NCBI GenBank assembly: GCA_007130585.1
Contig: SLSE01000030.1
Span: 4,267 to 68,266, forward strand
DNA from: Syntrophomonadaceae bacterium
GTDB taxonomy: Bacteria > Bacillota > Dethiobacteria > DTU022
Reading direction: 5' to 3'
DNA: 64,000 nucleotides
Positions 1,392-63,969 of the stretch are shown in pieces. Within the stretch, counting starts at the first letter, position 1. Each line of letters opens with the position of its first letter. A program made the position numbers and the translations under genes. Under the pieces are notes generated by a model. The model was not told where the DNA came from. It did no database searches and was given only the letters and a program-made list of their open reading frames with translations.

Positions 1392-1410
1392 GCACTCTCC
1401 TTCGTCAGCA

Positions 1411-3141: not shown

Positions 3142-3146
3142 TTAAT

Positions 3147-3545: not shown

Positions 3546-3561
3546 CTCTTCCTGCTCTGCT

Positions 3562-4509
3562 TTATAATTTTTCGGCAGCTCTCAGCCGGGCACTGCGGGC
3601 CCGCGGATTGCTGTTTATTTCTTTTTGACCAGGCTTGACTGCTTTGCCGGTCAATATTTTCAGGTCCGCCTGCTGCCCGCAAATACAGGGTAAATTGGGG
3701 GGACAGCTGCAGCGGCCCGTTTTTCCCCTGAAAAACTCTTTCACCAGGCGGTCTTCCAGTGAATGGTAGGCAATTATTATGAGTCTGCCGCCCCGGGCAA
3801 GGGATTCGGCCGCCTGCGGCAGTACTTCTGTAATATTTTCCAGCTCCCTGTTTACTTCAAGACGTAAAGCCTGAAATACCCGGCGGGCCGGATGGCCCCC
3901 CTGGCGCCTGTAGCGGGCCGGAATAGCGTTCTTTACTATTTCGGCCAGTTCCCGGCTGCTTTCAATTGCCCCTTTCCGGTCTCGTTCCCGGACAATATTC
4001 TCGGCTATACGCCTCGACCAGCGTTCTTCGCCGAAGCGGAAAAAGATTTCCGTCAGCTGTTCGGCTGTATAACGGTTTATAATATCTTCGGCTGTCAAAG
4101 AGCGGCGGCGGTCCATTCGCATATCCAGGCCGCCTTCATGATGGAAAGAGAATCCCCGTTCTGCTGCCATTAGCTGCAGGGTTGAAGCCCCCAGGTCAAT
4201 TAAGATTCCGTTAACCCGGGAATAACCCGCTTTTCTGAGGATCTCTTCCATCCCTGTATAGTCGGCGCGGACCAGAATCAGGCGGTCTGCGTAATCTTTC
4301 AATCTTGATTGCGCCCGTTCCAGGGCGTCTGCATCCCAGTCTATCCCGATCAAGCGGCCCTCTCCGGAAAGGTTCTTCAATATTGCTTCCGCGTGCCCGC
4401 CATCCCCGAGTGTGGCGTCGACGTAAACGCCGTCCGGGCGGCAGTCGAGATAATTAAGCACTTCTTTTTCCATAACGGGCAGGTGCAGATCAACCACGCT
4501 CAACACCAC
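3562..4509 (-). CDS. rsmH: 16S rRNA (cytosine1402-N4)-methyltransferase RsmH/MraW
   Basis: The N-terminus HLPVMEKEVLNYLDCRPDGVYVDATLGDGGHAEAIL matches the RsmH SAM-binding region. Position is dcw-cluster typical. Confidence 0.9.
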   Translation of the reverse strand: MVLSVVDLHLPVMEKEVLNYLDCRPDGVYVDATLGDGGHAEAILKNLSGEGRLIGIDWDADALERAQSRLKDYADRLILVRADYTGMEEILRKAGYSRVNGILIDLGASTLQLMAAERGFSFHHEGGLDMRMDRRRSLTAEDIINRYTAEQLTEIFFRFGEERWSRRIAENIVRERDRKGAIESSRELAEIVKNAIPARYRRQGGHPARRVFQALRLEVNRELENITEVLPQAAESLARGGRLIIIAYHSLEDRLVKEFFRGKTGRCSCPPNLPCICGQQADLKILTGKAVKPGQKEINSNPRARSARLRAAEKL

Positions 4510-4511
4510 TT

Positions 4512-4943
4512 TTAAAGATCAAAGTCCACCAGCTTTTCGGCAAGTTCTTCGTAATTTTCGTTGGCTTCACTGAAATAATCTTTCCAGGCCGCTTCATTCC
4601 ATATTTCAACCCGGTTCGAAACGCCGATAATCATAACATCTTTATCAATGCGGGCATATTCCCGCAGGTTCTGGGGAATCAGAACACGGCCCTGCTTATC
4701 AGTTTCGACTTCCATCGCTCCGGAAAAAAACATGCGCGTAAAAGCGCGGGAATCACTTTTCGTAAAGGGAAGCTGTTTCAGCTTTTGCTCCAGGCGAACC
4801 CATTCGGAATTCGGGTAGACAAACAGGCACTGATCCAGGCCGCGGGTAACCACAAAACTATCCCCCAAGCCATCGCGCAGGCGCGAGGGAATGATCACCC
4901 TGCCTTTCCCATCCAAAGTATGCTGGTATTCGCCTGTAAACAT
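4512..4943 (-). CDS. mraZ: transcriptional regulator MraZ
   Basis: [27 protein letters not shown] with a duplicated MraZ fold. Start is placed at ATG 4943, which has SD GGAGG (the ORF-track M at 4976 lacks an SD). Confidence 0.9.
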
Positions 4944-4971
4944 GTGTTCGCCTCCGTTTGGGGCATTTACA

Positions 4972-5000
4972 ACCACTTTTCACCACTTTACACCACTTTA
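4972..5000 (-). promoter_or_regulatory. three tandem 10-bp direct repeats (AAAGTGGTGT / AAAGTGGTGA / AAAGTGGTT read on minus strand), candidate MraZ operator
   Basis: Seen directly: + strand ACCACTTTT CACCACTTTA CACCACTTTA at 4972-5000, which is 29-57 nt upstream of the mraZ ATG. MraZ proteins are known to bind GTGG-containing direct repeats at 10-bp phasing in their own promoter. Confidence 0.6.
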
Positions 5001-5317
5001 CGTTATAATTCAACCCCTTTTCATGCATTCCTGCCTGTTTTTTTAAAAAAATATAAAAAAAAGAGGAAATTATGGATTAATTCCCTTCAACACTCCCATT
5101 ATTTTCCTGTATTTAAGATTACCAGCCACGCAATCCCGGACTGGCCGCATTTCGGTTAATAATCACCCGCAGGCCTCGCTGCCGGGCTCGGCCCGCTTTT
5201 TTCGGCCCCCGGGAATTAGCCGAATCCACGATCGCTTTCAGATTAACACTCCGGTGTACAGCATCAGATAAAGCAAGCAATTTCGGGGAGAGACCCAGAT
5301 CAAGGTTTATTTCAGTT

Positions 5318-6652
5318 TTAGCGGAGGTATTCGAGGAAAGCTGTCGCTATGACAAAGTAAATAAGCAGCCCGGTAACATCTTTTATGGTAGTGACAAACG
5401 GGCCGGCGGTTATTGCCGGATCAATATTGATCAGATTGCAGATCATCGGCACCAGGGTGCCGATCAGGGCAGCCACGCTGATTGTAGCCATCATGGAAAT
5501 ACCGACTACCAGGCCCAGGTAGATATTGCCCTGCCAGAAATAGGCAGTAACCGAGATCAGGACGCCGCAGAGAACTCCCATCACCAGGCCGATTTTAATT
5601 TCCCGGAACAGGTATGGCCACATTTCGTTGCTCTCTATCTCACCGGTGGCCAGGCCGCGGACAAATATGGTGGATGATTGGGTCCCCACGTTTCCCCCCA
5701 TGTCCATAAGCACGGGTATGAAAACGGCAAGCATAACTATTGCTTCGAGGGTGTTTTCAAAGACGCCGATTACACTTCCCGATAAAATACCCCCCGCCAG
5801 GCTGATGACCAGCCAGGGCAGCCGGAGGCGGACAACCTTGTTCACGGAAGCTTTGGTCAGCTCGACCCCTTCAACTTCACTGGCTCCGGCCAGGCGGTAA
5901 ATATCTTCCGTGGCCTCCTGTTCCATAACGTCCATAACATCATCCACGGTAATAATGCCGAGCAGCCTTTCCTGATCGTCCACTACCGGTACGGCAAGCA
6001 GGTCATACTTGGATACAATCCGGGCCACCTCTTCCTGGTCGAGCTCGGCGTTAACATTAATTACATTGGTACGCATAATACTTTCTATCAGCGTCCCATC
6101 GGAAGATGCGATCAGGTCGCGAAGCGAGACCACGCCGATCAGGCGGCCGTTCTCGTCAACCACATAAACATAGTAGATGGTTTCCGCTTCGGGGGCAATT
6201 TCCCTGAGGCGGTTAATGGCTTCTTCAACCGGTATGTCGGCGGGCAGGGAAATGAACTCGGTGGTCATGATTCCGCCGGCCGTGTCTTCCGGGTATTTCA
6301 TGAGATCACCGAAATCAACGGGGGCTTCTTCTTCGCTGACCAGATCAATTATCTGCCGGGCGTCTTCAGGCGAAAGCTCGCCCATCAGGTCGGCGGCATC
6401 ATCGGAAGGGAGGCTCCTTAGAACAGATTTAGTGCGTTCCTGTTCCAGGAAGGGCAGTATTTCAGCCTGCTCAAAATCTTCCATTTCATTAAATATGAGG
6501 GAAGCTTCTTCTGCGGGCAATCTGTGTATAAGGTCGACTTTTTCTTCAAGTTCGAGGTCTTCAAATAAATCGAGAAGGTCTCCCGGGTGGGTTCCCGCCT
6601 GCAGTTCCTGCCTGATCCGGTTATAGATTTGTTCGACAGTCAAAGCTCCCAC
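5318..6652 (-). CDS. mgtE: magnesium transporter MgtE
   Basis: 444 aa with an MgtE N-domain, tandem CBS domains (DENGRLIGVVSLRDLI) and a C-terminal 5-TM MgtE channel domain. Confidence 0.9.
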   Translation of the reverse strand: MGALTVEQIYNRIRQELQAGTHPGDLLDLFEDLELEEKVDLIHRLPAEEASLIFNEMEDFEQAEILPFLEQERTKSVLRSLPSDDAADLMGELSPEDARQIIDLVSEEEAPVDFGDLMKYPEDTAGGIMTTEFISLPADIPVEEAINRLREIAPEAETIYYVYVVDENGRLIGVVSLRDLIASSDGTLIESIMRTNVINVNAELDQEEVARIVSKYDLLAVPVVDDQERLLGIITVDDVMDVMEQEATEDIYRLAGASEVEGVELTKASVNKVVRLRLPWLVISLAGGILSGSVIGVFENTLEAIVMLAVFIPVLMDMGGNVGTQSSTIFVRGLATGEIESNEMWPYLFREIKIGLVMGVLCGVLISVTAYFWQGNIYLGLVVGISMMATISVAALIGTLVPMICNLINIDPAITAGPFVTTIKDVTGLLIYFVIATAFLEYLR

Positions 6653-7144
6653 CTCCCCTGATCAATTCAGGGATCTTTCCGTTCCGGTCCGGCCCTTATT
6701 ATTCGTTTTTCTTCAAGGAAGCCGTATGGCAGGCCGATTCTGCAAACACTTTATTATTATAGCACGCAGAAAAGCATTAAAAAACCCCGCTGTGCCGTGG
6801 GCCATGGTTTTGAACTGTTCCCCCGAAAGGTGGGTACCCTCTCAACTGTTTTGCAGGTCCTCTTTTCAAAGGCTGCTGCGCCGCAGAAGAAGTCCGGGTT
6901 CCCGTTGTAAAAGTGTTAGCTCAAAACTTATAGGTTGCCACGAACACCGCAGGGTATTGCAAATATTTGTTTCTATTTTCATTAAGATAATAGCACATTT
7001 GAGGGATTGGCGCAAGGTTTGGCAGAGACGATCCTGCTTCTTAACTCCGTTATTTTCTTCCTCCTAAACCTTTCCCGGGAAGCAACTGTTTTAACAGGGG
7101 CGCCGGAGCCCGGGTTGTGCCTGTAAGCGCTTTACAACCCGTAG

Positions 7145-7180
7145 AAAAACAGGGGCTGTTTAAAAACAGCCCCTCTTTCC
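7145..7180. terminator. rho-independent terminator downstream of hisS-aspS
   Basis: The hairpin AGGGGCTGT-TTAAAA-ACAGCCCCT (7151-7174) is flanked by an A-run 5' and T-rich sequence 3' on the + strand. Read on the minus strand it is followed by UUUUUCU. Confidence 0.6.
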
Positions 7181-7196
7181 GGCTAAGCGTTAATAT

Positions 7197-10100
7197 CTAC
7201 TCCTCTTCTTCCCTTTTTTGCAGTTCAATTTTAAGCTCATCGAGCTGTCCGCCGTCAACGGAAGCGGGAGCGCCGGTCATCAGGCAGCTGGCTGCCGCCG
7301 TTTTCGGAAAAGGTATAACCTGGCGGATTGAATCGTCCCCTGCGAGCAGGGCAACCAGGCGGTCCAAACCGAGGGCAATCCCGCCATGAGGGGGAGCGCC
7401 AAAGGAGAGAGCTTCCAGCAAAAAGCCGAATTTTTCAATGCTTTCTTCTTCCGATAAGCCCAGCAGCTTAAATATTTCGGCCTGGGTTGCGCTGTCGTGG
7501 ATACGGGTACTCCCTCCGCCTATCTCCACTCCGTCGAGCACAAGATCGTAGGCCTGGGCCCGCACGGCAAGGGGATCGCTTTGCAGGACAGGCATATCTT
7601 CCACCCTGGGCGCAGTAAAAGGATGGTGATCGGAGTCGTAGCGCCGTTCATCTTCGTTATAGTGGAAGAGCGGGAAATCCACAACCCAGAGAAAATGCGG
7701 GTCGGCTGAGATATCTTCCGGAGCCAGGTGACGGCGCAGGTGGCCCAAAACCTGGCAGGTTGTCTCCCACCTGTCGGCTACAAAGAGCAAAACATCGCCC
7801 GGCTGCGCTTCCATCCGATTATTAATATCCCCGATCAGCTGTTCGCTGAAAAACTTGCTGATTGGAGAGCGCCAGCTGTTTTCTTCGACAAAAACCCAGG
7901 CCAGGCCGCTGGCGCCAAGCTGGCGGGCCAGCAGCGTGAGATCATCGAGGTCTTTGCGGCTCATCCTGCCGCCGCCTTTTACACGCAGGCCCTTAACCGA
8001 ACCTCCGGTCTCAAGGGCTGATTTGAAAACTTTGAAATCGCTGGTTCCGGCCAGGTCATCAAGATCGAGCAGCTCCATACCGAACCGCAAATCCGGTTTA
8101 TCTGACCCGAAGCGGTTCATGGCTTCCCGGTAAGGCATGCGCAGGAAAGGCCGTTTGATTTCAATGCCGTGAATCTCTTTCCAGAGCAGGGCAACCAGCC
8201 CTTCCAAAAGGGCAAAAAGGTTTTCCGGGCCGAAAAATGAAGTTTCGATATCAACCTGGGTAAACTCCGGCTGGCGGTCCGCCCTGAGGTCTTCGTCACG
8301 GAAGCAGCGCACGATCTGGAAGTAGCGCTCGACGCCGCTAACCATGAGCAGCTGCTTGAACAGCTGTGGCGATTGGGGAAGGGCGTAGAATGAACCGGGA
8401 TGCTGGCGGCTGGGCACCAGGAAATCCCTGGCCCCTTCCGGAGTGCTGCGGGTCAGCATGGGCGTTTCAATTTCCATGAAATCATAACGATCCATGTAGT
8501 CACGGATTAATTTAACAGCCCTGTGGCGCAACTGCAGCCGGCCAAGCATTTCGGGGCGCCTTAGATCAAGGTAACGGTAACGCAGACGGAGGTTTTCATC
8601 AACATTTGTATTATCTTCTATATAGAAAGGAGGAGTCCTGGAAGTATTTAAAACCTCCATACCGTCGACACGCACCTCAACCCGGCCCGTAGGCAGGGCA
8701 GGGTTAATATTTTCGTCCGACCGCCTGACAACCTCGCCTTCCACGGAAACGACATATTCGCTGCGCAGGTTTTCAGCTTCATTAAAAAGGCCGGAGCCAA
8801 GCTGCTGATCGAAAACCAGCTGCACTACTCCGCTGCGGTCTCTCAGATCAATGAAGATCAGGCCGCCGTGGTCGCGCCGTTTGCCTACCCAGCCGGCCAG
8901 CTTAACCCGGCTTTTGATATAATCGGCATCGAGAACGCCGCAGTAGTGAGTTTTCCTGTCGGGGGCACCCAGGGGCGGCAGGGTAACCTCAGCCGTGGCG
9001 GGAGCGGTAACCGCTTCCGTTTCCGGGGGGCAGTCTTCGAGGATGAGTTCAAAGATTGCCTCACGCACCACTTCCTGCTGCTGACCACTTTCCATGTTAC
9101 GCAGGGTAACAACGCCGCGGGAAATTTCATCTTCCCCGATGATGGCTACATACCTGTAACCCTGCCGGCCGGCATATTTCATCTGGGCTTTCAGGCTGCG
9201 CTCCATCATCTCCGTTTCGGCAGCAATGCCCTTTTCCCGCAGTTCGGAAGCAAGCAGAAGAGCTTCACCTTCAAGTCCGCTGCCCGCCGGGGCGATGTAT
9301 ACCGATGTTAAAGGTTCGGGCATCTGCCTGCTCCAATCCATGGTCAGGAGAATTCTTTCCACACCGAAGGCAACCCCTACTCCCGGGGTGGGAGGCCCGC
9401 CGCAATGCTCCACAAGGTGATCGTAGCGGCCTCCTCCGCATAGCGACGCCTGGGAACCCGAAGCCCCGGCCGTAATTTCAAAAGCCGTGCGGGTATAGTA
9501 ATCGAGGCCCCTGACCAGGCGGCTGTTCAGGTTGTAAGGTATTTCAAGCCTGTCCAGCAGCCTTCTGACTGCGGCAAAGTGCCGGTCGCAGTCGGGGCAC
9601 AGGTAATCAGTCATCCTGGGTGCCGCCTCTATAGCGGCCTGGCAGCTTTCCGCCTTACAGTCGAGGACGCGCATCGGGTTGTTCCTGTAGCGTTTAACAC
9701 ATTCTTTACAGAGATCTGCCCCGGCATTTTCAAGATAAGGCACCAGAACTTCCCGGAACTGCGGCCGGCAAACCGGGCATCCCACACTGTTCAGTTCAAT
9801 AGAGAGGTTTTCCAGCTGCAGCGAACGAAAAAACCTGTAGCAAAAAGAGATGATTTCCGTATCGGCGGCAGCATGGGCCGCCCCGAATATTTCAAGCCCA
9901 AACTGGTTAAACTGACGGTAACGGCCGGCCTGGGGGCGATCGTAGCGAAACATGGGGCCGATATAATAAAGCTTAACCGGTTGGGGTTGTTCTTTCAGGT
10001 TGTGTTCAAGGTAAGCCCGCGCAACAGCAGCGGTCAGTTCCGGGCGGAGGGTTAAGTCGCGCCCGCTGCGATCCTTGAAGGTATACATTTCCTTTGAAAC

Positions 10101-37147: not shown

Positions 37148-38629
37148 CTAGTAAGCCCGGGCAAAGTAGGCGGCTTCTACGGCTTTTCCTCCACAGGCAA
37201 AGCATTTATCGCCTTCCGGTTCCCTGTCGAACGGCAGGCAGCGAATTGTAGCCCTGGTTTCGTTTTTCACTTTTTCTTCACAGGAGTCATCACCGCACCA
37301 GGGAGCAAGGAACAGCCCGCGTTCAGTTTCCATAATCTTTTTGAATTCCTCGTAATCAGAACCGCTGCGGGTATTTGCTTCCCGGAATTCCAGGGCTTTC
37401 TGGAGCATGTCGTCCTGGATCCGGTCCAGAAGCCCGGGCAGTAAGGCAGGCAGTTCTTCGCGGGCTATAAACTCTTTATCGCCTGTATCCCTCCGCACTA
37501 TAACAACATGGCCTTTGTCCAGGTCCCGGGGACCGATTTCGATACGGATCGGGACTCCCCGCATCTCCCACTCGTTGTACTTCCAGCCCGGCGAGTATTC
37601 CTCGCGATCGTCCAGCTTAATGCGGACCTGTCCCTTCAGTTGCTCTTCCAGTTCGCGGGCCGAATTAAGGACCCGTTCCCGATCTTTTTTGCTCAGGATG
37701 GGCACAATTACAGCCTGAGTGGGAGCCAGGCGCGGCGGCAGGACCAGGCCGCGGTCATCGCCGTGGACCATGATCAGCGCGCCGATCAGGCGGGTGGAAA
37801 CTCCCCAGCTTGTCTGCCAGACATGTTTAAGCTGATCGTCCTGATCCAGGAATGTAATATCGAAAACCCTGGCAAAATGCTGGCCAAGGTTGTGAGAGGT
37901 GCCTGCCTGCAGGGCGCGCCCGTCTGTCATCAGGGCCTCAACACTGTAGGTTCTCAGGGCCCCGGCAAACTTTTCGCGCTCCGTCTTGCGCCCGGCAATA
38001 GCCGGTATGGCCATCTCTGTTTCCAGAAACTCGCGGTAAACCTCGAGCATCTTGAGAGTTTCTTCTTCCGCCTCTTCCTCGCTGCGATGACAGGTATGCC
38101 CTTCCTGCCACAGGAATTCGGAGGTGCGCAGGAACGGGCGGGTGGATTTCTCCCAGCGGACCACGTTACACCACTGGTTGATTAAAACAGGCAAATCCCG
38201 CCAGGATTGAATCCAGCGGGAGTAGAAATCGCAAATGATGGCTTCAGAAGTGGGCCTGACTGCCAGCGGTTCATTTAATATTTCGTTTCCGCCCCTGGTT
38301 ACCCAGGCAAGCTCGGGGGCAAACCCTTCCACGTGCTCGGCTTCTTTTTCCAGCAGGCTCTGGGGAATAAAGGTCGGAAAGTAAGCGTTCTCATGGCCCG
38401 TTTCTTTAAAGCGCCGGTCCATCTGCTGCTGTATTTTTTCCCAGAGGGCGTAACCTAAAGGCCTGATGGCCATAAAACCTTTCATCGGAGCATAATCCAT
38501 CATCTTCGTTTTCAAAATTACATCGATGTACCACTGCGAATAGTCTACAGCTTTTGGGGTAATCTCTTTTACAAATTCTTTGTCCCGGGACGGCTTATTC
38601 TGCCCGCTTTTCTGCTCCATTAATTCCAC
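37148..38629 (-). CDS. proS: prolyl-tRNA synthetase, archaeal/eukaryotic-type (short, C-terminal Zn-binding domain)
   Basis: 493 aa starting ...YSQWYIDVILKTKMMDYAPMKGFMAIRPLGYALWE and ending with a Cys-containing Zn domain and ...AAYFARAY. It lacks the bacterial-type editing insertion. Confidence 0.9.
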   Translation of the reverse strand: MELMEQKSGQNKPSRDKEFVKEITPKAVDYSQWYIDVILKTKMMDYAPMKGFMAIRPLGYALWEKIQQQMDRRFKETGHENAYFPTFIPQSLLEKEAEHVEGFAPELAWVTRGGNEILNEPLAVRPTSEAIICDFYSRWIQSWRDLPVLINQWCNVVRWEKSTRPFLRTSEFLWQEGHTCHRSEEEAEEETLKMLEVYREFLETEMAIPAIAGRKTEREKFAGALRTYSVEALMTDGRALQAGTSHNLGQHFARVFDITFLDQDDQLKHVWQTSWGVSTRLIGALIMVHGDDRGLVLPPRLAPTQAVIVPILSKKDRERVLNSARELEEQLKGQVRIKLDDREEYSPGWKYNEWEMRGVPIRIEIGPRDLDKGHVVIVRRDTGDKEFIAREELPALLPGLLDRIQDDMLQKALEFREANTRSGSDYEEFKKIMETERGLFLAPWCGDDSCEEKVKNETRATIRCLPFDREPEGDKCFACGGKAVEAAYFARAY

Positions 38630-38679: not shown

Positions 38680-41298
38680 CTAGCGAACGGCCAGTTTCCT
38701 GCGGGTTTGCAGCAATCTCTGCCAGCTTTCATCGCTCAGGGGGCGGTTAAAGCTGCGGAAATTAGCCAGCTTGAAGCCGTGCTCGTCAGCCAGGTACCTG
38801 GTGCGCAAGATCGATTCCAGGTTAACCCCGGATGAGCCTAAGCTGTAGTGCCTGTACTGCTGTTCAAGGGCCAGGAGCATGGTCTCTGCCATGCAGGCAT
38901 AAGCCAGGCCTTCTTCAAATCCAAAATCCCAGCCTAATGAAGGCTGTCCGGGAATTTCAACCACTCCACCGTCAATGACCAGGACATCCGGACGGGCCCG
39001 GTCAACTTCCTCGCTGACATTGGCAGGACGGGAAATATCACAAACAATGGCTCCTTCTTTCAGGTTCCCGGCATGGATCACTTTTTCAGTGGCGCTCGTC
39101 GCGCTGATAACAATGTCGGCCCTGGCCAGCACCGCGTCGATATCGGTTGAGAACTCGATCAGTCCCCTGCTTTTACCTTCTCCTTCTGCAAAAGCTTCAA
39201 AAGCTTCCATGGGGGCATCGGGCATTGGAAGTTCCGGGCACCCGGCCAGCATAAAGCCCATGCTGCCCGGTTTAAGAGTCCGGCCCTGCTGTAGAAGAGC
39301 CGCCTGGTAGCGGTAAATCTCGGCAGCCACCTGGTGCAGCCTTTCACTGGCCGATCTATTGTTCGGGTTGCCGATCAGGATCAGGCGGGGCACTGTTTCC
39401 GACAGGAGAAGGGAAATCCCCCGCCCGATCGAACCCGCCGCACCGACAATGGCCGCTGTTGTGCGGGACCGATCAATCTGTAATTTTTCGGTAGCGGTAG
39501 TAATCGCATCAACCGCCGATACAACCGTATAGCTGTTGCCGGTAGTTATCGGCACTCCTTCATTTTTCAGGTAAAGGCCGCCCATGGAGGCAACGGCGGT
39601 AAAAGCGCCGAGACCGACAATTTTTGCCCCCCGTTCGCGGGCCAGGGCCACTGCAGCCTTAAGCTCGCTTAAAACCTGTTTTCGGGGCATCTGCACAAAC
39701 TCGTCGGTTGTCCGCGGCAGGCCGATAAATTCACCGTAAGCTTTTTTCCCGGCGGCAGAGGTAATTTTTGTTTTACCGGCGATAAAAGGCTCGATCATAC
39801 CGCCGAAGCGGCCTGTCAGTTCGGCCAGCTCTTCTTCACTGAAAGCAAGCAGGCTGCTGTCAAACTGATGATAACTTTGCAAATCAAGGGCGTGGACCAG
39901 GAAGGCGAAACGCCCTTCATCGTCTTCGCCGCCGGGGAAATAGTTTTCAGCCCGGTAGGGCTTGAATTCCGGGAAGCTGCCCGCATTGCCCGGCCTGACC
40001 AGGTACGACAGAAACTGTGCCGTGCTGCCCCTGTTCAGGACCTGCAGCATCGAGTCCAGCCCTGCGAGGGCGGTGCGGCACTGCTCTTCGCTGATCGTAA
40101 GAGGCGGTTCGATACGGATAACGGCATTTCCGTTCAGGGTAGGGGCAACCCGCACTTTTTCCACGTTTAAAAGGTATGAGGAAATTGCCGGGGTAAGCAG
40201 TTCCTGCTCGGCCATGACACCCAGCAGGCTGCCGGGAAAGTGCTCGCGATCCATGTAAAATTCCAACCCGAGCATCAAACCGCGCCCGCGAACTTCCCTG
40301 ATCAGGTCAGGATACTTCTCTTTCAGTTCATGGAGGCCGTTTTTCAGGAGTTCTCCCCTGGCCCGAACATCTTTAATCAGGGCGCTGTTTTTGGCGGTCA
40401 GTTCTTCTATGACCCGCAGCCCGACCCGGCAGGCCAGGGCATTGCCGGCAAATGTCGATGAATGCTTTAATCCAAAGTCTTCAGTATAAGCCTGATCCGT
40501 GCACAGGCAGGCCCCGATCGGCATGATCCCGCCACCCAGCGCCTTGGCCAGGACCATGACATCGGGAGAAACATTTTCCTGGTCGCAGGCAAAAAGCGCA
40601 CCGGTGCGCCCGAGTCCTGTCTGGACCTCATCAAAGACAAGCATAACCCCGTGTTCACGGCAGATCTCTTTTACCGCAGCCAGGTATCCTGCCGGCGGCT
40701 CCACAATACCGCCTTCGCCCTGGATCGGCTCAACCAAAAAGGCGGCATAATAGTCCGGTTTTCCGGCAAGTTCTTTTTGCAGGGCTGCGCTGTCACCGTA
40801 AGCTATGTGATTAAACCCTTCTGCGGGAGCATTGAAAGCCGACTGGTAGCCGGGGTTACCGGTAGCAGAAAGAGCGCCAAAGGTTTTTCCATGAAAGCTG
40901 TTATCTGTTGCCAGTATACCGGCCCGCCCGGTAGCAGAACGGCAGAGCTTGATTGCCGCTTCTACAGCTTCGGCACCGCTGTTGGCAAAGGTTACATATT
41001 CCAATCCTTCCGGGGCCAGGTTAATCAGGGCGCCGGCAAGTTCTCCGGCAGCATCCAGGTCCGAAGGCTGCATAAAGTTCGGTTCTGCCGAATCGCGGTA
41101 GCGCTCAACCGCCGCCCAGATCGAAGGGGGATTATGACCGAAGGGAAGGGCCCCGTAAGCGGCAATGCAGTCCAGGTAACGGTTGCCCCGGTCATCGTAA
41201 AGATAGCAGCCTTCGCCGCGCACATATTTTTGATCGAGTTTAATGCTTTCCAGCATCTCGCCCAGGTAGGGATTTACGAAGCGGGTGTAATTGTTCAT
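38680..41298 (-). CDS. two-domain fusion: PatA/YgjG-type class-III (PLP) aminotransferase fused to acyl-ACP-reductase (AAR/COG5322)-like NAD(P)H reductase domain
   Basis: The N-terminal ~430 aa share FHGKTFGALSATG, LVEPIQGEGGIVEPPAGYL and FDEVQTGLGRTG motifs with the PatA-like gene at 62641. The C-terminal ~430 aa align with cyanobacterial AAR along its length: FAFLVHALDL~MFGLIGHLTSL, KIVGLGAFTAVA~DISALGGFTSII, ITTGNSYTVV...TAAIVGAAGSIGRGISLLL~FTTGNTHTAYV...VAVVGATGDIGSAVCRWL, GGVVE, and ACMAETMLLALE~ACFAEAMLLEFE. Start is ATG 41298 (SD AGGAGG); the ORF-track start at 41337 would overlap that SD. Confidence 0.85.
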   Translation of the reverse strand: MNNYTRFVNPYLGEMLESIKLDQKYVRGEGCYLYDDRGNRYLDCIAAYGALPFGHNPPSIWAAVERYRDSAEPNFMQPSDLDAAGELAGALINLAPEGLEYVTFANSGAEAVEAAIKLCRSATGRAGILATDNSFHGKTFGALSATGNPGYQSAFNAPAEGFNHIAYGDSAALQKELAGKPDYYAAFLVEPIQGEGGIVEPPAGYLAAVKEICREHGVMLVFDEVQTGLGRTGALFACDQENVSPDVMVLAKALGGGIMPIGACLCTDQAYTEDFGLKHSSTFAGNALACRVGLRVIEELTAKNSALIKDVRARGELLKNGLHELKEKYPDLIREVRGRGLMLGLEFYMDREHFPGSLLGVMAEQELLTPAISSYLLNVEKVRVAPTLNGNAVIRIEPPLTISEEQCRTALAGLDSMLQVLNRGSTAQFLSYLVRPGNAGSFPEFKPYRAENYFPGGEDDEGRFAFLVHALDLQSYHQFDSSLLAFSEEELAELTGRFGGMIEPFIAGKTKITSAAGKKAYGEFIGLPRTTDEFVQMPRKQVLSELKAAVALARERGAKIVGLGAFTAVASMGGLYLKNEGVPITTGNSYTVVSAVDAITTATEKLQIDRSRTTAAIVGAAGSIGRGISLLLSETVPRLILIGNPNNRSASERLHQVAAEIYRYQAALLQQGRTLKPGSMGFMLAGCPELPMPDAPMEAFEAFAEGEGKSRGLIEFSTDIDAVLARADIVISATSATEKVIHAGNLKEGAIVCDISRPANVSEEVDRARPDVLVIDGGVVEIPGQPSLGWDFGFEEGLAYACMAETMLLALEQQYRHYSLGSSGVNLESILRTRYLADEHGFKLANFRSFNRPLSDESWQRLLQTRRKLAVR

Positions 41299-41318: not shown

Positions 41319-41378
41319 TGTGCACATTTATGTGCACACCAATAGTCCCATTTTAACCCGAACCCCGGTAAAAATCAA
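41319..41378 (-). promoter_or_regulatory. promoter (TTGATT-17-TAAAAT) with downstream palindromic operator TGTGCACA-TTTA-TGTGCACA
   Basis: On the minus strand: -35 TTGATT (41373-41378), 17-nt spacer, -10 TAAAAT (41350-41355). A 20-bp element TGTGCACATTTATGTGCACA at 41319-41338 lies between the -10 and the SD of the aminotransferase-reductase fusion gene; each 8-mer is itself palindromic. Confidence 0.45.
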
Positions 41379-41466: not shown

Positions 41467-42561
41467 CTACCTGGAAAATTTCTTCTCCAGTTTATCCATG
41501 ATACTGACAATGCCCCCGTATTCCAGTTCGGCATAGGGAAGCATGGCCGGGCCTGAGAAACCCTGCTCCCGCATATCGTAAGATTTCCTGGCCACTTTTT
41601 CCCTGACGAAATCCCAGTAGGGGTGGTCAAAACAGTCTACCGGTTCGGTTAATTTTCCGTTGTGTACGCAAAAACCGACAGCGCTGACAATCGGGGGGCC
41701 GTCGAAGTAGGATATGGCGCCGCCCATTTTAACCGGCATCAGGGGACCGGTGTGACTGCCGCGCATGAAGCCGGCCACGTAATGCCCGATACTATAGGGG
41801 GACAGGATTTCTCCGGTGGCGGGGAAATCGCCCTGGCAGCGCACCAGGAGTACAGGATCGTCTTTGCCCGTGTATTTCCCGGCAATATTGTGCAACCGGG
41901 TAGTACTGGCTGCTGCGGCCTGGTTACCGGTTGCCCGGGAATAGATGGCCGAAACAACAAACCGTTCGTTATCCCTGAGCAGCGCCGCAATATCATATAG
42001 CTCCTCGGGCGCATCAAGTTCAATGACCCGGTCTTCTTCCGTGAAAGCTACATCGAGGATTACAAACCTGAAACCGCGGCCAATTTTAGGCGAGAGAATC
42101 AACCCGGAACAGTGCATCGGGTCGGCAAAACCGAGATAGAGCGGAAGATTGTAAGCGCCGGGGTCGGTTTTATCCGCCGTGAAAAGCAGGAAGGGTTCGG
42201 CTTCCCGCTCTTCAAATTCCATTTCGGCAACTGCCGGACCCAGGCCCCTCACGTTGCCGGAGCAGGCATCGGCCAGTAAATCCTGGCCTGCTCCGTAAAG
42301 GCCCTGCTCTTTGGCTTTTTCAGTTCCGCAGATGAAGGCATCCCAGGCCAGTTGATGAAGCTCACCGTAACCGGTTCCATGGTTATGGCAGAATAAAATA
42401 GCAACATCGTCTCCCGTGCTGCCGATATAGAAGTCGGTAATTAATTTCCCGAGCTGCCTGTCAATACATTCTTTTACTGAATCGATCAAGGCCCGGCTGG
42501 GCTTAATGTGGCCGGCAATACTTCCGATATCGGCTTTGATTACACTCAAAGTCGTTTTCAT
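41467..42561 (-). CDS. fbp: bifunctional fructose-1,6-bisphosphate aldolase/phosphatase (class V FBPase)
   Basis: MKTTLSVIKADIGSIAGH...GDDVAILFCH...GLYGAGQDLL...SGNVRGLGPAVAEMEFEER is near-colinear with archaeal FBP aldolase/phosphatase. 364 aa. Confidence 0.9.
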   Translation of the reverse strand: MKTTLSVIKADIGSIAGHIKPSRALIDSVKECIDRQLGKLITDFYIGSTGDDVAILFCHNHGTGYGELHQLAWDAFICGTEKAKEQGLYGAGQDLLADACSGNVRGLGPAVAEMEFEEREAEPFLLFTADKTDPGAYNLPLYLGFADPMHCSGLILSPKIGRGFRFVILDVAFTEEDRVIELDAPEELYDIAALLRDNERFVVSAIYSRATGNQAAAASTTRLHNIAGKYTGKDDPVLLVRCQGDFPATGEILSPYSIGHYVAGFMRGSHTGPLMPVKMGGAISYFDGPPIVSAVGFCVHNGKLTEPVDCFDHPYWDFVREKVARKSYDMREQGFSGPAMLPYAELEYGGIVSIMDKLEKKFSR

Positions 42562-42737: not shown

Positions 42738-44046
42738 CTACTCTTCTTCCGGGGGCACGATCAGGGAAACCGCGTGGCGGTCCGGGTCCAGGTTTTCTTC
42801 AACCAGGGCCAGGGCTTCTTCCCGTCTTACTTCGTGGAGGATGGAGGGTAGTTGAAACAGGTCTATTCCTTTGAACCGGAAAGACAGAAAATTGTTGGCT
42901 ATAAACTCAAGCGAATTAAAACGCCTGATATAACTGCCCAGTACTTTGCGGCGGTGGCGTTCGAATTGTTCTTTGCTGATTCCTTCTTTTTTTATCCCGG
43001 CAACTGCTTCCATGATCCGCCTGTAAAGCTGCTCGGGATCCCTGGTTTCTCCGCCGATCATGGTATAGCCGTACGTGTTTTCCGCGGTGTATTCGGAGTC
43101 AAAGTTTTCATCAATTAAATCTTCGCGGTAAAGGTCGTTGTAGAGGGCTTCGCTTGAACCGAACATGACATCGAGGAGCAGCTCCATCAATATTTCCCTG
43201 CGCATCAGTTCTCGTCCCTGCAGTTCCCCGGCAACCATATCTTTGAAGCCAAGCAGGAAAATCGGCTCTGATACAACCAGTTCCTGGACTGTCCGCTGCC
43301 TGGCAATCTCAGCCGGTTCCCCGGGGTAGCTGCGCACGATTGCCCCCATCGGCCGGTAATTGTGCGCGGCGAGATTTTCCTCCACCAGGGCGCCTATCCG
43401 GCCGGGATCGAGATCGCCGACCACAAACAGGGCCATATTGCTGGGGTGATAAAAAGTCCTGTACGTGCGGTAGAGCAGGTCGGGCGTAATGCGGGAAATG
43501 CTCTCCAGCGTGCCGGCGATGTCATTGCGGACGGGATGCTCAACGTAAAGGCCTTCCAGCAGGTTAAAGAATACCCTCCAGTGAGGATGATCTTCGTACA
43601 TTTTTATTTCCTGCCCGATAATGCCCTGCTCTTTTTGTACGGTCTGCTCGGTAAAGTAAGGTTCCTGTACGAATTCCAACAACTGTTCCAGGCTCTGTTC
43701 AAAGTTTTCGGTGCAGGAAAAGAGGTAAGAAGTCTGGGTAAAAGAGGTAAAAGCGTTCGCCGAGGCGCCAAGAGCGGCAAAACGGTCAAAAACATTGCCC
43801 CTTTCGTCTTCAAAAAGTTTATGCTCCAGGAAGTGGGCTACCCCGTCGGGAAGGACGGTTAATTCCTGGTCCGGCTCAACCCGGAAACGGTTGTCGATCG
43901 ATCCGAAGCGGGTCGAGAAAATAGCATACTTTTTCCTGTAGCCGGGACGGGGCAAAACATAGAGATCCATCCCGGGATGAACGCGGTAGTGATAGAGGGT
44001 TTCCTGCAATTCCCTGTTTTCTATAAGCCGGTAGTGCTCGGTCATT
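42738..44046 (-). CDS. M16 family zinc peptidase (active subunit)
   Basis: Inverted zinc motif HFLEHKLFE (HXXEH). Start at ATG 44046 abuts the stop of the upstream M16 gene. Confidence 0.8.
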
Positions 44047-45336
44047 TTAACTGGCGCCTCCTTCACGCGGCCGCAGGAGATAAACTGTATCAAGTTTTAT
44101 CCGTTCAGCCACAGCTTTTATTTCTTCCCTGCCTACAGCATTAATTGCGGTTTCCAGCTCTCCTATGCTGTATGTTTTGCCGCCGACAGAGCCATCGAGA
44201 TGAAAAGAAATCAGCTGGCCCGGGCTGTCCTGTTTTGAGCGGAGCTGGTTGCACAAACCCCGCCTGGTATTGTCAAGCTCTGAGTCGCTAATATTTCCGG
44301 CGGCCATGTCTGTCAGCTGGAGATCGATTATCTCGCGCGCTTTTTCCCGTTCATCGTAGTTTATGCCGGCCGCTATAACCATCAGGCCCTTGTGTTTTTC
44401 CAGACGGGAATGGATATAGTAAGCCAGTCCGGCTTCTTCGCGAACGTTCATGAACAGCTTGGAGTGAGGGAAACCTCCGAGGATCCCGCTGTAGACCAGC
44501 AGGGCGCTGTATAACTCATCCCGGTAGCCCGTGTAGGTGCGAAACCCCATCACCATCTTGGACTGGTTAACCGACATTTCTTCTTCTTGCTGCCGGACAC
44601 CATGCACGGGATGCATTATATCGGTTTCCGCAAGAGTAAGCTGTTCCCCGTTACGGTTAAAATTAAATACCTGCCCGGCTGTACCGACAACCTCTTCTTC
44701 CTCTAAATCTCCGATCACATAAAAGTCAATCGGATTGCGGGCAAAAAGATCCCGGTAGTAACGGTAAAGGCCGGCCTGATCAACCCGATCGTAGTCTTCG
44801 ATCCGGCCCAGCTTGTAAACACCATAGTTTTCATCAGCGCACATCAGGGAGATACAGCGTTCAAGGGCGTAAGATACCTTATCGTTCAGCATGGCCCTGA
44901 TGTCCTTGACCAGCTGATTTTTCTCCTGCCTGACATAGTCCTCCCTGAAAGCGCCGTCAACAACCAGCGGATCCCCGACAACTGAGCCGAGAATGGACAT
45001 GCCGTCAAAGAGCAGCCTGCCGTTTTCGCCCAGGAATTTATCGTGGGCCGTTTCCATGGTAAAAGCAAGGATATGCCTTTCCCCGCTTTTCATAATATCC
45101 GTGTTGATGTCGGCCCCATAAAGATTTTCCAGTTCCCGCTGCAGGGTCAGGTAATCGGGGTACAGGCGGCTGCCCTGCTCGAGAACTGACGGCAGGAGGG
45201 CATTTGAAGCCGCCAGATCGGGTTTCAATTCCTGGTGTAAAAAAAGCCCCATCGAGATGGTTTTGAATTTTTCGGTCGGCATAAAGATCAGCCTGATCCC
45301 ATTAGGTAAATAGTGATATGAGTAGCCTTTTTGCAA
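44047..45336 (-). CDS. M16 family peptidase-like protein (non-catalytic partner; no HXXEH)
   Basis: 429 aa with M16 N- and C-domain architecture but no HXXEH motif. Paired with the downstream catalytic M16 gene as in ymfF/ymfH. Confidence 0.75.
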   Translation of the reverse strand: MQKGYSYHYLPNGIRLIFMPTEKFKTISMGLFLHQELKPDLAASNALLPSVLEQGSRLYPDYLTLQRELENLYGADINTDIMKSGERHILAFTMETAHDKFLGENGRLLFDGMSILGSVVGDPLVVDGAFREDYVRQEKNQLVKDIRAMLNDKVSYALERCISLMCADENYGVYKLGRIEDYDRVDQAGLYRYYRDLFARNPIDFYVIGDLEEEEVVGTAGQVFNFNRNGEQLTLAETDIMHPVHGVRQQEEEMSVNQSKMVMGFRTYTGYRDELYSALLVYSGILGGFPHSKLFMNVREEAGLAYYIHSRLEKHKGLMVIAAGINYDEREKAREIIDLQLTDMAAGNISDSELDNTRRGLCNQLRSKQDSPGQLISFHLDGSVGGKTYSIGELETAINAVGREEIKAVAERIKLDTVYLLRPREGGAS

Positions 45337-61138: not shown

Positions 61139-62482
61139 TTACAGTTTTTCCTCTTCAGAGATTGCTTCTTCCAGGATGTCAAGACCGCGGTTAAGCTGGT
61201 CCGGGGGTGTATTAACCGGCATAAGCAGCCTGATTACATTACTGAAAATGCCCGCGGTTATTATAATCAGCCCTCTTTCATGGCACCGTTTGACAATTGC
61301 TTTGGTAGCTTCCGGCGCAGGCTGCCTGGTTGATTCGTCTTTTACCAGTTCAATGGCCTGCATAGCCCCCAGGCCCCGCCAATCGCCGATCAGGCTGTAT
61401 TTCTCTTTCATTTCCTGCAGTCTGTTAGAGGCAGCTGCTCCTGTTTCTTCGGCTTTTTTGCCAATTTGCTCTTTCTCTGCCGCATCCAAAACAGCCAGGC
61501 CTGCGGCACAGCCCAGCGGGTTACCGCCATAAGTACCGCCAATTTCCCCCGGTCCCGCTGCATCCATAACCTCGGCTTTTCCGGTCAGGGCGCTGATCGG
61601 AACTCCTCCGGCCAGGGATTTGGCCATGGTGATCATCTCGGGTTCAACTTCGTAATAAAAGGAAGCCAGCGGTCCGCCGGTGCGATAAAAACCGGTCTGG
61701 ATTTCATCCATTATTAAAACAATCCCATGCCTCCTGCATATTTCGTGAAGCACTTTAAAATAGTCCTGCGGAGGAACTATAAATCCTCCCTCACCCTGAA
61801 CCGGTTCAGCTATAAGGGCAGCCACGTTATCCGGGGAACATTCAACAGCCAGGAATTGCTCAAGGTAACGGGCACAGTGCAATTCACAATCGGGATAAGT
61901 CAGCCCGAACCGGCAGCGGTAGCAATAGGCAGCCGGTATTTTATATATTTCAGGCGCAAAAGGACCAAACCCGTATTTATAGGGCCTGACCTTTGATGTC
62001 AGGCTCATTGCCATCAACGTGCGCCCGTGGAAAGCTGCTTCCAGTGCAATAACAGCAGTTTTTTTCGTATAGCGCCGGGCCAGTTTAATTGAATTCTCAA
62101 CTGCTTCGGCACCGCTGTTAAAGAAAGCAGTTTTTTTGGGAAAAGCGCCGGGTGTAAATTCGTTTAACCGGCCGGCCAATCGAACATAAGGTTCGTAAGC
62201 CGCAACCATAAAACAGGTGTGCAGGTATTGATCAGCCTGCTTCTTAATTGCTTCGATAACTGCGGGATGGTTATGTCCGAAATTAACAACACCGATACCG
62301 CCGGCAAAATCAAGGTATTCATTATTGTCAACGTCAATCACCAGGCTTCCTCTGGTTTCCTTAACATATACGGGCATTACAGACGATATGCCGGCAGGGA
62401 CATTTTTTTCACGCATTTTTTGCAGTTCCCGGGATCCGGGCCCGGGTTGATGTGAAGCTGAATTTGCTGTTTTGTTGTTCAT
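61139..62482 (-). CDS. class-III PLP aminotransferase, 4-aminobutyrate aminotransferase (GabT)-like
   Basis: YLDFAGGIGVVNFGHNHPAVIEAIKKQ, FHGRTLMAMSLTS, the Schiff-base Lys region MAKSLAGGVPISAL, and EIQTGFYRTG. Confidence 0.85.
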   Translation of the reverse strand: MNNKTANSASHQPGPGSRELQKMREKNVPAGISSVMPVYVKETRGSLVIDVDNNEYLDFAGGIGVVNFGHNHPAVIEAIKKQADQYLHTCFMVAAYEPYVRLAGRLNEFTPGAFPKKTAFFNSGAEAVENSIKLARRYTKKTAVIALEAAFHGRTLMAMSLTSKVRPYKYGFGPFAPEIYKIPAAYCYRCRFGLTYPDCELHCARYLEQFLAVECSPDNVAALIAEPVQGEGGFIVPPQDYFKVLHEICRRHGIVLIMDEIQTGFYRTGGPLASFYYEVEPEMITMAKSLAGGVPISALTGKAEVMDAAGPGEIGGTYGGNPLGCAAGLAVLDAAEKEQIGKKAEETGAAASNRLQEMKEKYSLIGDWRGLGAMQAIELVKDESTRQPAPEATKAIVKRCHERGLIIITAGIFSNVIRLLMPVNTPPDQLNRGLDILEEAISEEEKL

Positions 62483-62640: not shown

Positions 62641-63969
62641 ATGGATAAGGAAGCAGTAATTAATGAAAGCGGACGTGTTCTTGAAATGATTTTAAAAGAT
62701 AATCTAACTGATGATGAAAAAGATCGTATAGTGGCTGATTCCGTTGAAAATTATTCCGAATATGTTAACCCCGGGATTCTCGCAGTCCGTAAATCCGTAT
62801 CCACTGATTACTCTTTCGTGGAGTGGGAAGATGAAGGCGCAGTTTTTCGTGATACCCATGGCGTAGAATTTATTGATTGCCTCGGCGGCTTCGGTATCTA
62901 CATGCTTGGACACCGCAATCCCAGGATCATCGAGGTAGTTAAGGCTCAGCTTGGCCGCTATGCCCTGCACAGCCAGGAACTCGTGGAACCGCTGCGCGGC
63001 TACCTGTCTAAGCTTGTGGCCATGATTACCCCGGGCGACCTCCAATATTCCTTTATATGCAATGGCGGCGCGGAAGCGGTGGAAATGGCCCTTAAGCTGG
63101 CCAGGCTTGCTTCCGGCAACCGGTGCTTTATTTCAACGGTAAATGCTTTTCACGGCAAATCCATGGGCGCTGTTTCAGCAACCGGGAAAGATACCTACCG
63201 CAAGCCCTACCTGCCGCTGATTCCCGGCTTCCAGCATGTTGAATACGCCGATGCCGGGGCAATAGAAAAAGCGATTCGCAACCTGATTGCCGTCGGGGAC
63301 TCGGTGGCCGGCGTAATTGTGGAACCAATCCAGGGCGAAGCCGGAATTATTGTCCCCCCGGCAGGATATCTTTCCAGTCTGCGTGAAATCTGCGACCGTT
63401 ATAATGTTTGCCTGATTACAGATGAGATCCAGACCGGCATGGGCCGGACCGGCAAAATGTGGGCGGTAGAAGAAGAAAACGTTGTTCCCGATATCCTGAT
63501 TATGGGTAAAGCTTTCGGGGGCGGAGTTATGCCCGTTACCGGAATAATTGCCCGTCCCTCATTATGGGAAAACATGAAAGATAATCCCTGGATTCTCGGC
63601 TCGCCTACTTTCGGAGGAAACCCCTTAAGCTGTTCGGCAGCCATTGCCGCTATAAAATATACCGTTGAATGGGATGTTCCCGCCATGGCAGCCGAAAAGG
63701 GTAACTATATTTTGAAAGAACTTAACGGGCTTAAAGAAAAATACCCCGTCCTGAAAGATGTCCGCGGCAGGGGCCTGCTGATTGGCATGGAGTTTCCCAG
63801 TGATGAGATCGGTTTTGCCCTGGCCAGGGGCCTGTTTGACCAGCGGGTGCTCGTGGGAGGAACCCTCAATAATGCCAGGGTAATTCGTATTGAACCGCCC
63901 GCGGTAATTTCCATGGAGCAGATTGACACAGTCCTTACCTGCCTGGAAAAAACCCTGAGCTCATTGTAA
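62641..63969 (+). CDS. class-III PLP aminotransferase, putrescine aminotransferase (PatA/YgjG)-like; paralog of the N-domain of the 38680-41298 fusion
   Basis: Start ATG 62641 with SD AGGAGG (the ORF-track TTG at 62590 is rejected). YVNPGILAVRK, GFGIYMLGHRNPRIIEVVKAQLGRYALHSQEL, DEIQTGMGRTGKMWA, MGKAFGGGVMP and TLNNARVIRIEPP match E. coli YgjG segment by segment. Confidence 0.85.
   Translation: MDKEAVINESGRVLEMILKDNLTDDEKDRIVADSVENYSEYVNPGILAVRKSVSTDYSFVEWEDEGAVFRDTHGVEFIDCLGGFGIYMLGHRNPRIIEVVKAQLGRYALHSQELVEPLRGYLSKLVAMITPGDLQYSFICNGGAEAVEMALKLARLASGNRCFISTVNAFHGKSMGAVSATGKDTYRKPYLPLIPGFQHVEYADAGAIEKAIRNLIAVGDSVAGVIVEPIQGEAGIIVPPAGYLSSLREICDRYNVCLITDEIQTGMGRTGKMWAVEEENVVPDILIMGKAFGGGVMPVTGIIARPSLWENMKDNPWILGSPTFGGNPLSCSAAIAAIKYTVEWDVPAMAAEKGNYILKELNGLKEKYPVLKDVRGRGLLIGMEFPSDEIGFALARGLFDQRVLVGGTLNNARVIRIEPPAVISMEQIDTVLTCLEKTLSSL

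Follow-up and report, generated by a model that had tools for sequence, protein, structure and literature searches.

We analysed a 64,000-nucleotide stretch of the genome of a Syntrophomonadaceae bacterium (assembly GCA_007130585.1, contig SLSE01000030.1, positions 4,267 to 68,266 of the forward strand), referred to here as the window. The minus strand of the window carries, at 38680..41298, a gene for a single protein in which a class-III aminotransferase (TA) domain is followed by a domain resembling AAR, the reductase of acyl-ACP (ACP, acyl carrier protein), which we call the thioester reductase (TR) domain. Both domains have counterparts in PtTamH, the TamH enzyme of Pseudoalteromonas tunicata, and the comparisons described below suggest that the protein probably turns an activated acid into a primary amine. 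The gene and its features, in window coordinates, are as follows.

38680..41298, minus strand: coding sequence of the TA–TR fusion, 872 amino acids (aa) plus stop codon; complete open reading frame (ORF)
40000..41298, minus strand: TA domain, a class-III pyridoxal 5′-phosphate (PLP) aminotransferase, residues 1-433; assigned from Aminotran_3 and from alignment with YgjG and PigE
40543-40545, minus strand: codon of the PLP lysine, Lys252, in LAKALGGG; aligned to YgjG K300, the PigE Lys and the TamH Lys ('LAKSLGGG')
39916..39999, minus strand: inter-domain linker, residues 434-461; predicted to lack regular secondary structure, with block-mean predicted local distance difference test (pLDDT) values of ~74-82; aligns with the PtTamH linker
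38680..39915, minus strand: AAR-like TR domain, residues 462-872, plus stop codon; assigned from sequence and model
39538..39546, minus strand: T585-T586-G587 motif; from the TR-domain alignment and a paper on the structure of a putative terminal amidation domain (TAD)
39424..39444, minus strand: nucleotide-binding motif G619-A-A-G622-S-I-G625; kept in at least 123 of 125 TR domains
39151..39345, minus strand: helical insertion, residues ~652-716; typical of TA–TR fusions and absent from the AAR of Synechococcus elongatus (SeAAR) and from PigE
38893..38895, minus strand: codon of Cys802, predicted to be the nucleophile that accepts the acyl group; equivalent by alignment to SeAAR C294 and PtTamH C887
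41306..41311, minus strand: ribosome-binding site AGGAGG, 7 nt before the ATG
41350..41378, minus strand: sigma-70-type promoter TTGATT-17-TAAAAT; predicted from sequence
41319-41338, no strand assigned: operator-like palindrome TGTGCACATAAATGTGCACA, made of two self-complementary octamers TGTGCACA with a 4-nt gap

The 872-aa frame contains no internal stops and homologs are of similar length, in agreement with the initial annotation, which had read the gene as one ORF without stop or frameshift. We place the start codon at the ATG at 41298 because an AGGAGG lies at 7-nt spacing upstream of it and because it agrees with the N termini of homologs; a GTG at 41337, in frame 13 codons before this ATG, falls within the operator. 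A protein that is 100% identical is present in NCBI/ENA, in a metagenome-assembled genome (MAG) from soda-lake sediment labelled 'Syntrophomonadaceae' (GCA_003563975.1). A search of other genomes for the same fusion, which had been suggested earlier, returned more than 120 full-length homologs (867-914 aa, 57-87% identity) from independent assemblies and sources, and the same single ORF was found at 32 genome loci. The members of this clade belong to anaerobic, often haloalkaliphilic, Bacillota.

The promoter and palindromic operator that the initial annotation had ascribed to the gene were both recovered. The palindrome has the layout TGTGCACA-TAAA-TGTGCACA and begins ~11 nt past the −10 box. 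The pattern GTGCACA-N4-TGTGCAC occurs once in the window, where 0 occurrences are expected by chance, and in the 839 kb of sequence fetched it is confined to the regions upstream of orthologs. We surveyed loci L001-L047, which contain orthologs of 57-87% identity with differing neighbours, and found that the double TGTGCACA element precedes the ortholog at every locus with a 5′ region except L038 (Thermohalobacter) and L043. The distance between the element and the −10 box is fixed, and its distance to the ribosome-binding site varies from 21 to 51 nt. The 5′ leader can fold into an 8-bp hairpin (z = −2.8), and we considered whether it might be an RNA element; no Rfam family matches it. This possibility was set aside: the sequence does not covary but is invariant, and it keeps a set distance from the −10 box, not from the ribosome-binding site, both of which favour a DNA operator. 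The best reading of the element, judged from these sequence features, is a repressor operator overlapping the transcription start. No regulator gene lies adjacent to the fusion gene, and a literature search on the TGTGCACA operator found nothing relevant.

The two catalytic domains

The N-terminal half of the protein is an Aminotran_3 domain, as had been expected, with the Pfam model matching residues 24-416 at E 7e-95. The best NCBIfam model for the fusion is that of PigE (NF053554), which scores 556.8 bits against a curated cutoff of 850, and the PatA model NF008570 scores 327.5 bits and fails its cutoff of 612. The TA domain is nearest to the TA domain of PigE (E 8e-90, ~40% identity), with YgjG next at 284 bits. 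'PatA-type', the functional label that had been given to this half, is therefore not borne out by a score of 327 bits against 612 or by a closest relative that is PigE. The paralog at 62641, to which this half had been likened, proves to be a genuine putrescine aminotransferase that shares only 36% identity with the TA domain.

We mapped the TA active-site residues onto YgjG with the help of PMC4244111. In this alignment D223, Q226 and F135 correspond to YgjG D271, Q274 and F180, and the other key residues are K138, E195 and R395. Lys138 occupies the position of the carboxylate-binding Arg of ornithine aminotransferase (OAT), acetylornithine aminotransferase (AcOAT) and γ-aminobutyrate (GABA) aminotransferase (GABA-AT); a Lys is also present at this position in YgjG (K183), PigE and TamH. 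The active-site entrance is hydrophobic and is lined by Y48, L277 and L388. The presence of Lys138 instead of Arg, together with this entrance, argues for an aliphatic substrate that is free of carboxylate, and Lys138 at the carboxylate-binding position argues against the omega-amino acids ornithine, GABA and β-alanine. The Glu195–Arg395 pair that serves 2-oxoglutarate/glutamate is retained, which makes L-glutamate the probable amino donor.

The C-terminal half had been assigned to the AAR family, and both sequence and structure comparisons uphold this assignment. Using phmmer, we found that this half matches the N-terminal domain of PigE (4PPM, E 1.8e-25) and SeAAR (6JZQ/6JZU, E 1e-15). The NCBIfam model TIGR04058 (AcACP_reductase) matches it weakly, at 82.9 bits, and the curated cutoff of 449.7 is not reached. 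An AlphaFold model of the full-length protein is confident (pLDDT 88, pTM 0.83), and because Foldseek with this model gave aminotransferases only, the TR domain was modelled separately (pLDDT 83.5). The top match of the TR model was SeAAR (E 1.4e-20, TM ~0.8), followed by the TAD domain of carmabin (CarI; E ~1e-17); the remaining Rossmann enzymes were far weaker (E ≥ 4.5e-6, TM ≤ 0.44), which speaks against membership in an unrelated Rossmann family, a possibility that had been raised for this half.

To compare individual residues, we aligned the query with 124 near-complete TR domains, collected by searching 1.84 billion representatives exhaustively. The NAD(P)H site claimed in the initial annotation is present as the GxxGxxG motif G619/G622/G625, and this motif, the TTG motif, H469 and E805 are near-invariant in the 125 domains. 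The equivalent invariant Thr-Thr-Gly of AAR-fold domains touches the catalytic Cys (bioRxiv 10.1101/2024.10.28.620694). A Cys is found in the Cys802 column in all 125 domains: 'LAYAC802MAETML' pairs with 'QMFAC294FAEAML' of SeAAR, 'LNGCMAETIV' of PigE and 'VYACCGETML' of TamH. In SeAAR, which works by a ping-pong mechanism, C294 is the nucleophile that accepts the acyl group (PMC9743570). Two details of the initial annotation needed correction here. It had placed C294 of SeAAR in KQPCVLIDGG, and by alignment count the Cys of that segment is C240, with C294 lying in QMFACFAEAML; it had also looked for the catalytic Cys of the fusion near EGAIVCDISRP (Cys753), and C294 aligns with Cys802 instead. 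Cys753, in 'IVCDISRP' (codon 39040-39042, minus strand), is invariant in the clade and is a Cys in 113 of the 125 close TR relatives. This residue may sit near the nicotinamide, or may serve redox or regulatory chemistry.

Between the Rossmann motif and Cys802 lies the insertion, which had been described as a stretch of ~70 aa absent from AAR. The insertion is real, although its net gain is ~45-50 aa rather than 70: residues 652-720 make up 69 residues in the fusion, compared with 19-28 in stand-alone AAR-like proteins. We counted the length of this segment by alignment across the 124 TR relatives. In stand-alone TR proteins the median was 24 residues, and 12 of 33 had at least 45; proteins that join TR to a domain other than TA also had a median of 24, with 1 of 11 reaching 45. 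Among proteins of the TA–TR, X–TA–TR and TA–TR–X architectures (X, another domain), the medians were 60-66 residues and 60 of 67 had at least 45. The spacing from the G motif to the catalytic Cys is 183 residues in the fusion and 180 in TamH, compared with 132 in SeAAR and 135 in PigE. The lengths by architecture and these spacings identify the insertion as a mark of the TA-then-TR order, found well beyond this one protein. The AlphaFold2 model predicts an ordered, helical insertion, which may plausibly act at the inter-domain interface or in the hand-over of the aldehyde.

At E ≤ 1e-30 the TR domain found matches in 624 representative clusters, and of the 124 nearest near-complete domains more than half are joined to a TA domain; judged by sequence, the TA–TR pair is a widespread module. 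Relatives at 45-51% TR identity include the architectures AMP-binding–peptidyl carrier protein (PCP)–TA–TR (~1500-1600 aa) and TA–TR–AMP-binding, the latter with a CoA-ligase-like part (~1400 aa), and one relative of 2624 aa combines two adenylation domains, carrier domains, an Aminotran_1_2 domain (oxoamine-synthase-like) and TA–TR (P0122, P0130, P0131, P0134 and P0137, including the 2624-aa protein). The adenylation domains of these proteins are classified as fatty-acid-AMP ligase (FAAL), as members of the benzoate-CoA-ligase family (above its cutoff) or as generic acyl-CoA ligases. These domain assignments show a TA–TR module used with different acids, and the large fused relatives are potential one-polypeptide acid-to-amine enzymes. 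The repeated attachment of acid-activating units to TA–TR supports the order acid, thioester, aldehyde, amine.

Proposed reaction and its alternatives

The fusion can be compared with two enzymes from pigment pathways. In PtTamH, which acts in the synthesis of tambjamine YP1, an omega-transaminase forms the N-terminal part and an NADH-dependent thioester reductase the C-terminal part (Richardson et al., ACS Catal 2022, PMC9594044). Together with TamA, an adenylation–ACP protein, PtTamH converts a C12 acid into a C12 amine, as shown on TamA-bound C12 acyl-ACP with NADH and L-Glu; its TR domain takes the cognate acyl-ACP and rejects acyl-CoA, and L-Glu is the donor for its TA domain (PMC9594044). 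PigE, from the MAP pathway of Serratia prodigiosin synthesis, has been re-interpreted as a thioester reductase and transaminase in TR–TA order, with the chemistry inferred (Couturier et al. 2021, PMC8341465). In BLASTP the fusion is collinear with PtTamH (UniProt A4C5V8), with 29% identity over 747 columns and E 8e-79; the PtTamH sequence was machine-read from the supplement of PMC9594044 and may contain small errors.

The PtTamH experiments, this collinearity and the retention of every catalytic residue support thioester-to-aldehyde-to-amine chemistry. The initial annotation had set out this logic, which has been demonstrated for PtTamH and, by analogy with this collinear enzyme, would extend to the fusion. 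Considering sequence, models and analogy together, we think it probable that the fusion is a bifunctional enzyme of the TamH type that leads from an activated acid to a primary amine. We infer its activity, direction, cofactor, amino donor and substrate, as well as the identity of its regulator, as follows. Cys802 of the TR domain would take over the acyl group of a phosphopantetheinyl thioester, which may be an acyl-ACP or an acyl-CoA. The acyl-enzyme thioester would then be reduced by NAD(P)H bound at G619xxG622xxG625, and the aldehyde would be released. Finally, the TA domain, with PLP on Lys252, would turn the aldehyde into a primary amine, most probably with L-glutamate as the donor. The acyl group is most likely aliphatic and without a carboxylate, so that the expected product is an alkylamine, with a diamine less likely. 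Expression would be driven by the gene's own promoter and would probably be repressed through the double TGTGCACA operator just past the −10 box.

Several observations weigh against this proposal. Identity to PtTamH is only 29%, and the fusion falls below the curated cutoffs of PigE (557 versus 850 bits), AAR (83 versus 450) and PatA (327 versus 612). Cys753, to which we assign no role, is replaced by Ile in SeAAR, Ile in PigE and Ser in TamH. The TR domain of PtTamH needed its cognate acyl-ACP, yet no carrier or adenylation gene lies near the fusion gene: tblastn detected no adenylation or ACP homolog in the 64-kb window, and a gene for an adenylating enzyme or carrier is likewise absent near orthologs in the 10 lineages sampled.

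The same two activities could instead run in the catabolic direction, with an amine converted to an aldehyde that is oxidised on Cys802 with NAD(P)+ to acyl-CoA, yielding energy for an anaerobe. Such a reaction would resemble that of a CoA-acylating aldehyde dehydrogenase and would be the microscopic reverse of the AAR mechanism, and transamination is reversible. The hosts are fermentative anaerobic Bacillota, a repressor-type operator fits a substrate-inducible breakdown pathway, and a PatA–GabT pair for amine catabolism is encoded in the same window. In Thermohalobacter berrensis (positions 1-9800 of locus L038, MCIB01000009.1), the ortholog lies on the same strand ~200 bp past a diol-dehydratase microcompartment operon with PduP- and PduL-like genes for the handling of aldehydes and acyl-CoA; the operon encodes a dehydratase reactivase, bacterial microcompartment (BMC) shell proteins, a PduL-like phosphotransacylase, an aldehyde dehydrogenase and an RnfC-like protein. 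This adjacency is nevertheless found in one lineage only, and at a locus without the operator. Moreover, the characterised relatives AAR, PigE and TamH are all reductive and biosynthetic, and relatives are fused to adenylation or ligase domains, through which acids enter. We therefore consider catabolism an unlikely direction, albeit the most serious competitor.

A biosynthetic enzyme could also act on a more polar substrate, an omega-aminoacyl thioester or a related one, so that its product would be a diamine (putrescine or cadaverine, for instance) and not a fatty amine. YgjG is second only to PigE in similarity to the TA domain (284 bits), and three YgjG contacts to putrescine are common to both proteins (Q77 = Q119, K138 = K183, L388 = L419), as is, approximately, a local motif (VRVAPTLNGN versus VLVAGTLNNA). 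The gene is also conserved, monocistronic and housekeeping-like and lies outside biosynthetic clusters. However, Q77, K138 and the other shared residues also occur in PigE or TamH, whose aldehyde substrates are hydrophobic; a genuine PatA is already encoded elsewhere in the genome; there is no apparent source of omega-aminoacyl-CoA or -ACP; and the fused relatives bear ligase domains for fatty or aryl acids. Diamine synthesis thus appears somewhat less probable still than the catabolic direction.

Much less probable than either is that the C-terminal domain is not a reductase, but performs TAD-like or other chemistry such as thioester amidation, or is regulatory or inactive, leaving the aminotransferase as the only activity that matters. 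The rank of the CarI TAD as second-best structural match (E ~1e-17), the Cys, TTG and NAD binding that it has in common with the TR domain, and the additional conserved Cys753, which lacks an explanation, would fit this view. In sequence, though, the domain falls together with PigE, AAR and TamH (E 1e-25 to 1e-15), and phmmer matched no TAD chain at E ≤ 1. TADs end nonribosomal peptide synthetase (NRPS) modules after a PCP, whereas here the domain follows an aminotransferase that requires an aldehyde, and the reductase residues, which are under strong purifying selection, are all invariant. Finally, that the fusion is an assembly or annotation artefact in which two adjacent genes were merged can be dismissed with near certainty, given the uninterrupted frame in the window, the full-length homologs from independent assemblies, the one-ORF layout at the 32 loci and a confident model of the two-domain protein; we found no point that supports it.

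Returning to the TamH-type reaction, we tentatively suggest, as a possibility we rate below even, that the clade has a stand-alone, operator-controlled enzyme that draws on the central acyl-ACP or acyl-CoA pool without a dedicated carrier and makes or consumes an aliphatic amine. If so, the amine could be a fatty amine for the cell envelope or for signalling, or part of an undescribed polyamine route; the double TGTGCACA operator would have a dedicated regulator; and TamH-like TA–TR enzymes would not be restricted to pigment gene clusters. Use of housekeeping acyl-ACP or acyl-CoA would further imply an unrecognised amine metabolite in these organisms and would offer carrier-independent enzymes for biocatalysis. 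One-protein modules that lead from an activated acid to a primary amine are sought for the biocatalytic production of fatty and other amines, and studies so far cover PtTamH and PigE only.

Neighbouring genes

The fusion gene is monocistronic, and proS lies directly downstream of it (37148-38629, minus strand), as the initial annotation had reported. The adjacency carries no functional meaning, because it is confined to the closest clade. The order in this clade is an M16 peptidase pair, fructose-1,6-bisphosphate (FBP) aldolase/phosphatase (at some loci), the fusion, prolyl-tRNA synthetase (ProRS), 5-formyl-tetrahydrofolate cyclo-ligase and TetR, and synteny including proS is restricted to relatives at 73% identity or more. 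We considered a functional tie to proS, with GluTR/HemL-like action on an aminoacyl-tRNA, and rejected it, since the adjacency is missing in Dethiobacter, Thermohalobacter, Halanaerobiales and other lineages. The ProRS of the window is archaeal/eukaryote-like: it ends in a ProRS-C_1 domain and lacks the bacterial insertion domain.

The Dethiobacter ortholog has carAB upstream and gatBA downstream. Its position next to carAB prompted us to consider an ArgC/ArgD-like or GABA/β-alanine-type role, which we disfavour because Lys138 replaces the carboxylate-binding Arg and because the fusion gene has a promoter and operator of its own, situated between carB and its start codon. In a Halanaerobiales MAG the ortholog has glycogen genes as neighbours, and the neighbours in other lineages are unrelated. 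The Thermohalobacter locus L038, where the TGTGCACA operator is missing, may point to a connection with aldehyde or acyl-CoA metabolism in that lineage. No partner gene or biosynthetic cluster recurs among the sampled loci, and neither a tambjamine or prodiginine cluster nor an NRPS context was found at the fusion gene, whose neighbours are housekeeping genes.

Upstream of the fusion gene, the M16 peptidase pair (42738-45336, minus strand) is found in three lineages (the close clade, L044 and L047), and a gene for an M3 oligoendopeptidase F-like protein (PepF) precedes the ortholog in L042 and L046. We examined the neighbours as clues to function and found none that was consistent; the upstream peptidase genes are separate transcription units. 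Between the M16 pair and the fusion lies a gene for a class V (FBPase_3, archaeal-type) fructose-1,6-bisphosphate aldolase/phosphatase (41467-42561, minus strand). It occupies this spot only in some close relatives (L001, L004 and L009) and is missing in most others, a distribution that points to a recent insertion or deletion.

Further along the window is a divergent pair of aminotransferase genes, at 61139-62482 (minus strand) and 62641-63969 (plus strand), for a GABA aminotransferase and the genuine putrescine aminotransferase. The product of the first is a 4-aminobutyrate aminotransferase by TIGR00700 (519 bits, cutoff 507), and that of the second passes the cutoff of NF008570 (626.3 bits, cutoff 612). 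From these assignments, the pair looks like a catabolic module leading from putrescine through GABA to succinate semialdehyde.

Comparison with known enzymes

The initial annotation had known of no described enzyme with this architecture. PtTamH has the same domain order and PigE the reverse order, and the fusion is therefore, judged by sequence, an uncharacterised relative of the TamH type whose TA–TR architecture has already been described. Its likeness to PtTamH extends over the whole protein: TA domain, linker and TR domain follow one another in the same order and, together with the insertion, are collinear; the PLP Lys, the GxxGxxG motif and the catalytic Cys are in register; the same ~45-50-aa insertion separates the Rossmann motif from the Cys; and Lys, not Arg, occupies the substrate-carboxylate position. 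PtTamH differs in being longer (941 aa), with an additional ~80 aa of segments in its TA domain.

PigE is the best sequence match for both halves of the fusion (TA, E 8e-90; TR, E 1.8e-25) and has the same two chemistries. Its order is reversed, however, with TR N-terminal and TA C-terminal, and its TR domain has no insertion. Consistent with this reversal, the alignment to the PigE profile is swapped: the N-terminal half of the fusion aligns with positions 381-730 and the C-terminal half with positions 50-208. PigE works within the pig cluster on a 3-acetyloctanoyl thioester.

The TR domain shares with SeAAR (6JZU/6JZY) its fold (TM ~0.8), the GxxGxxG and TTG(N) motifs and the catalytic Cys, C294 = C802, with a ping-pong acyl-enzyme mechanism presumed, by analogy, to be common to both. 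Identity between the two is ~22%, and AAR is a stand-alone protein of ~340 aa that passes its aldehyde to aldehyde-deformylating oxygenase (ADO) and has neither the insertion nor an aminotransferase; in the fusion, the joined aminotransferase would take the place of ADO as the next enzyme. Similarly, the TAD of the CarI/VatR NRPS (9E4S) has an AAR-like two-domain fold, an invariant Cys, a TTG motif and NAD(H) binding (bioRxiv 10.1101/2024.10.28.620694). It differs from the TR domain in following a PCP at the NRPS terminus, in its proposed chemistry, which is amidation, and in having no aminotransferase partner. The TA domain has in common with PatA/YgjG (4UOX) the class-III fold, the PLP residues, the Lys at the position of OAT Arg180, the Glu–Arg pair and the hydrophobic entrance; PatA/YgjG is not joined to a reductase and is 35-37% identical to the TA domain.

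The clearest contrast with the closest described enzyme lies in the setting of the gene. PtTamH is encoded in a 19-gene tam cluster that includes TamA, whereas the fusion gene stands alone among housekeeping genes of anaerobic Bacillota and has an operator specific to its clade. This non-cluster, housekeeping-like setting, together with a dedicated and conserved operator, is what distinguishes the fusion from its known relatives.

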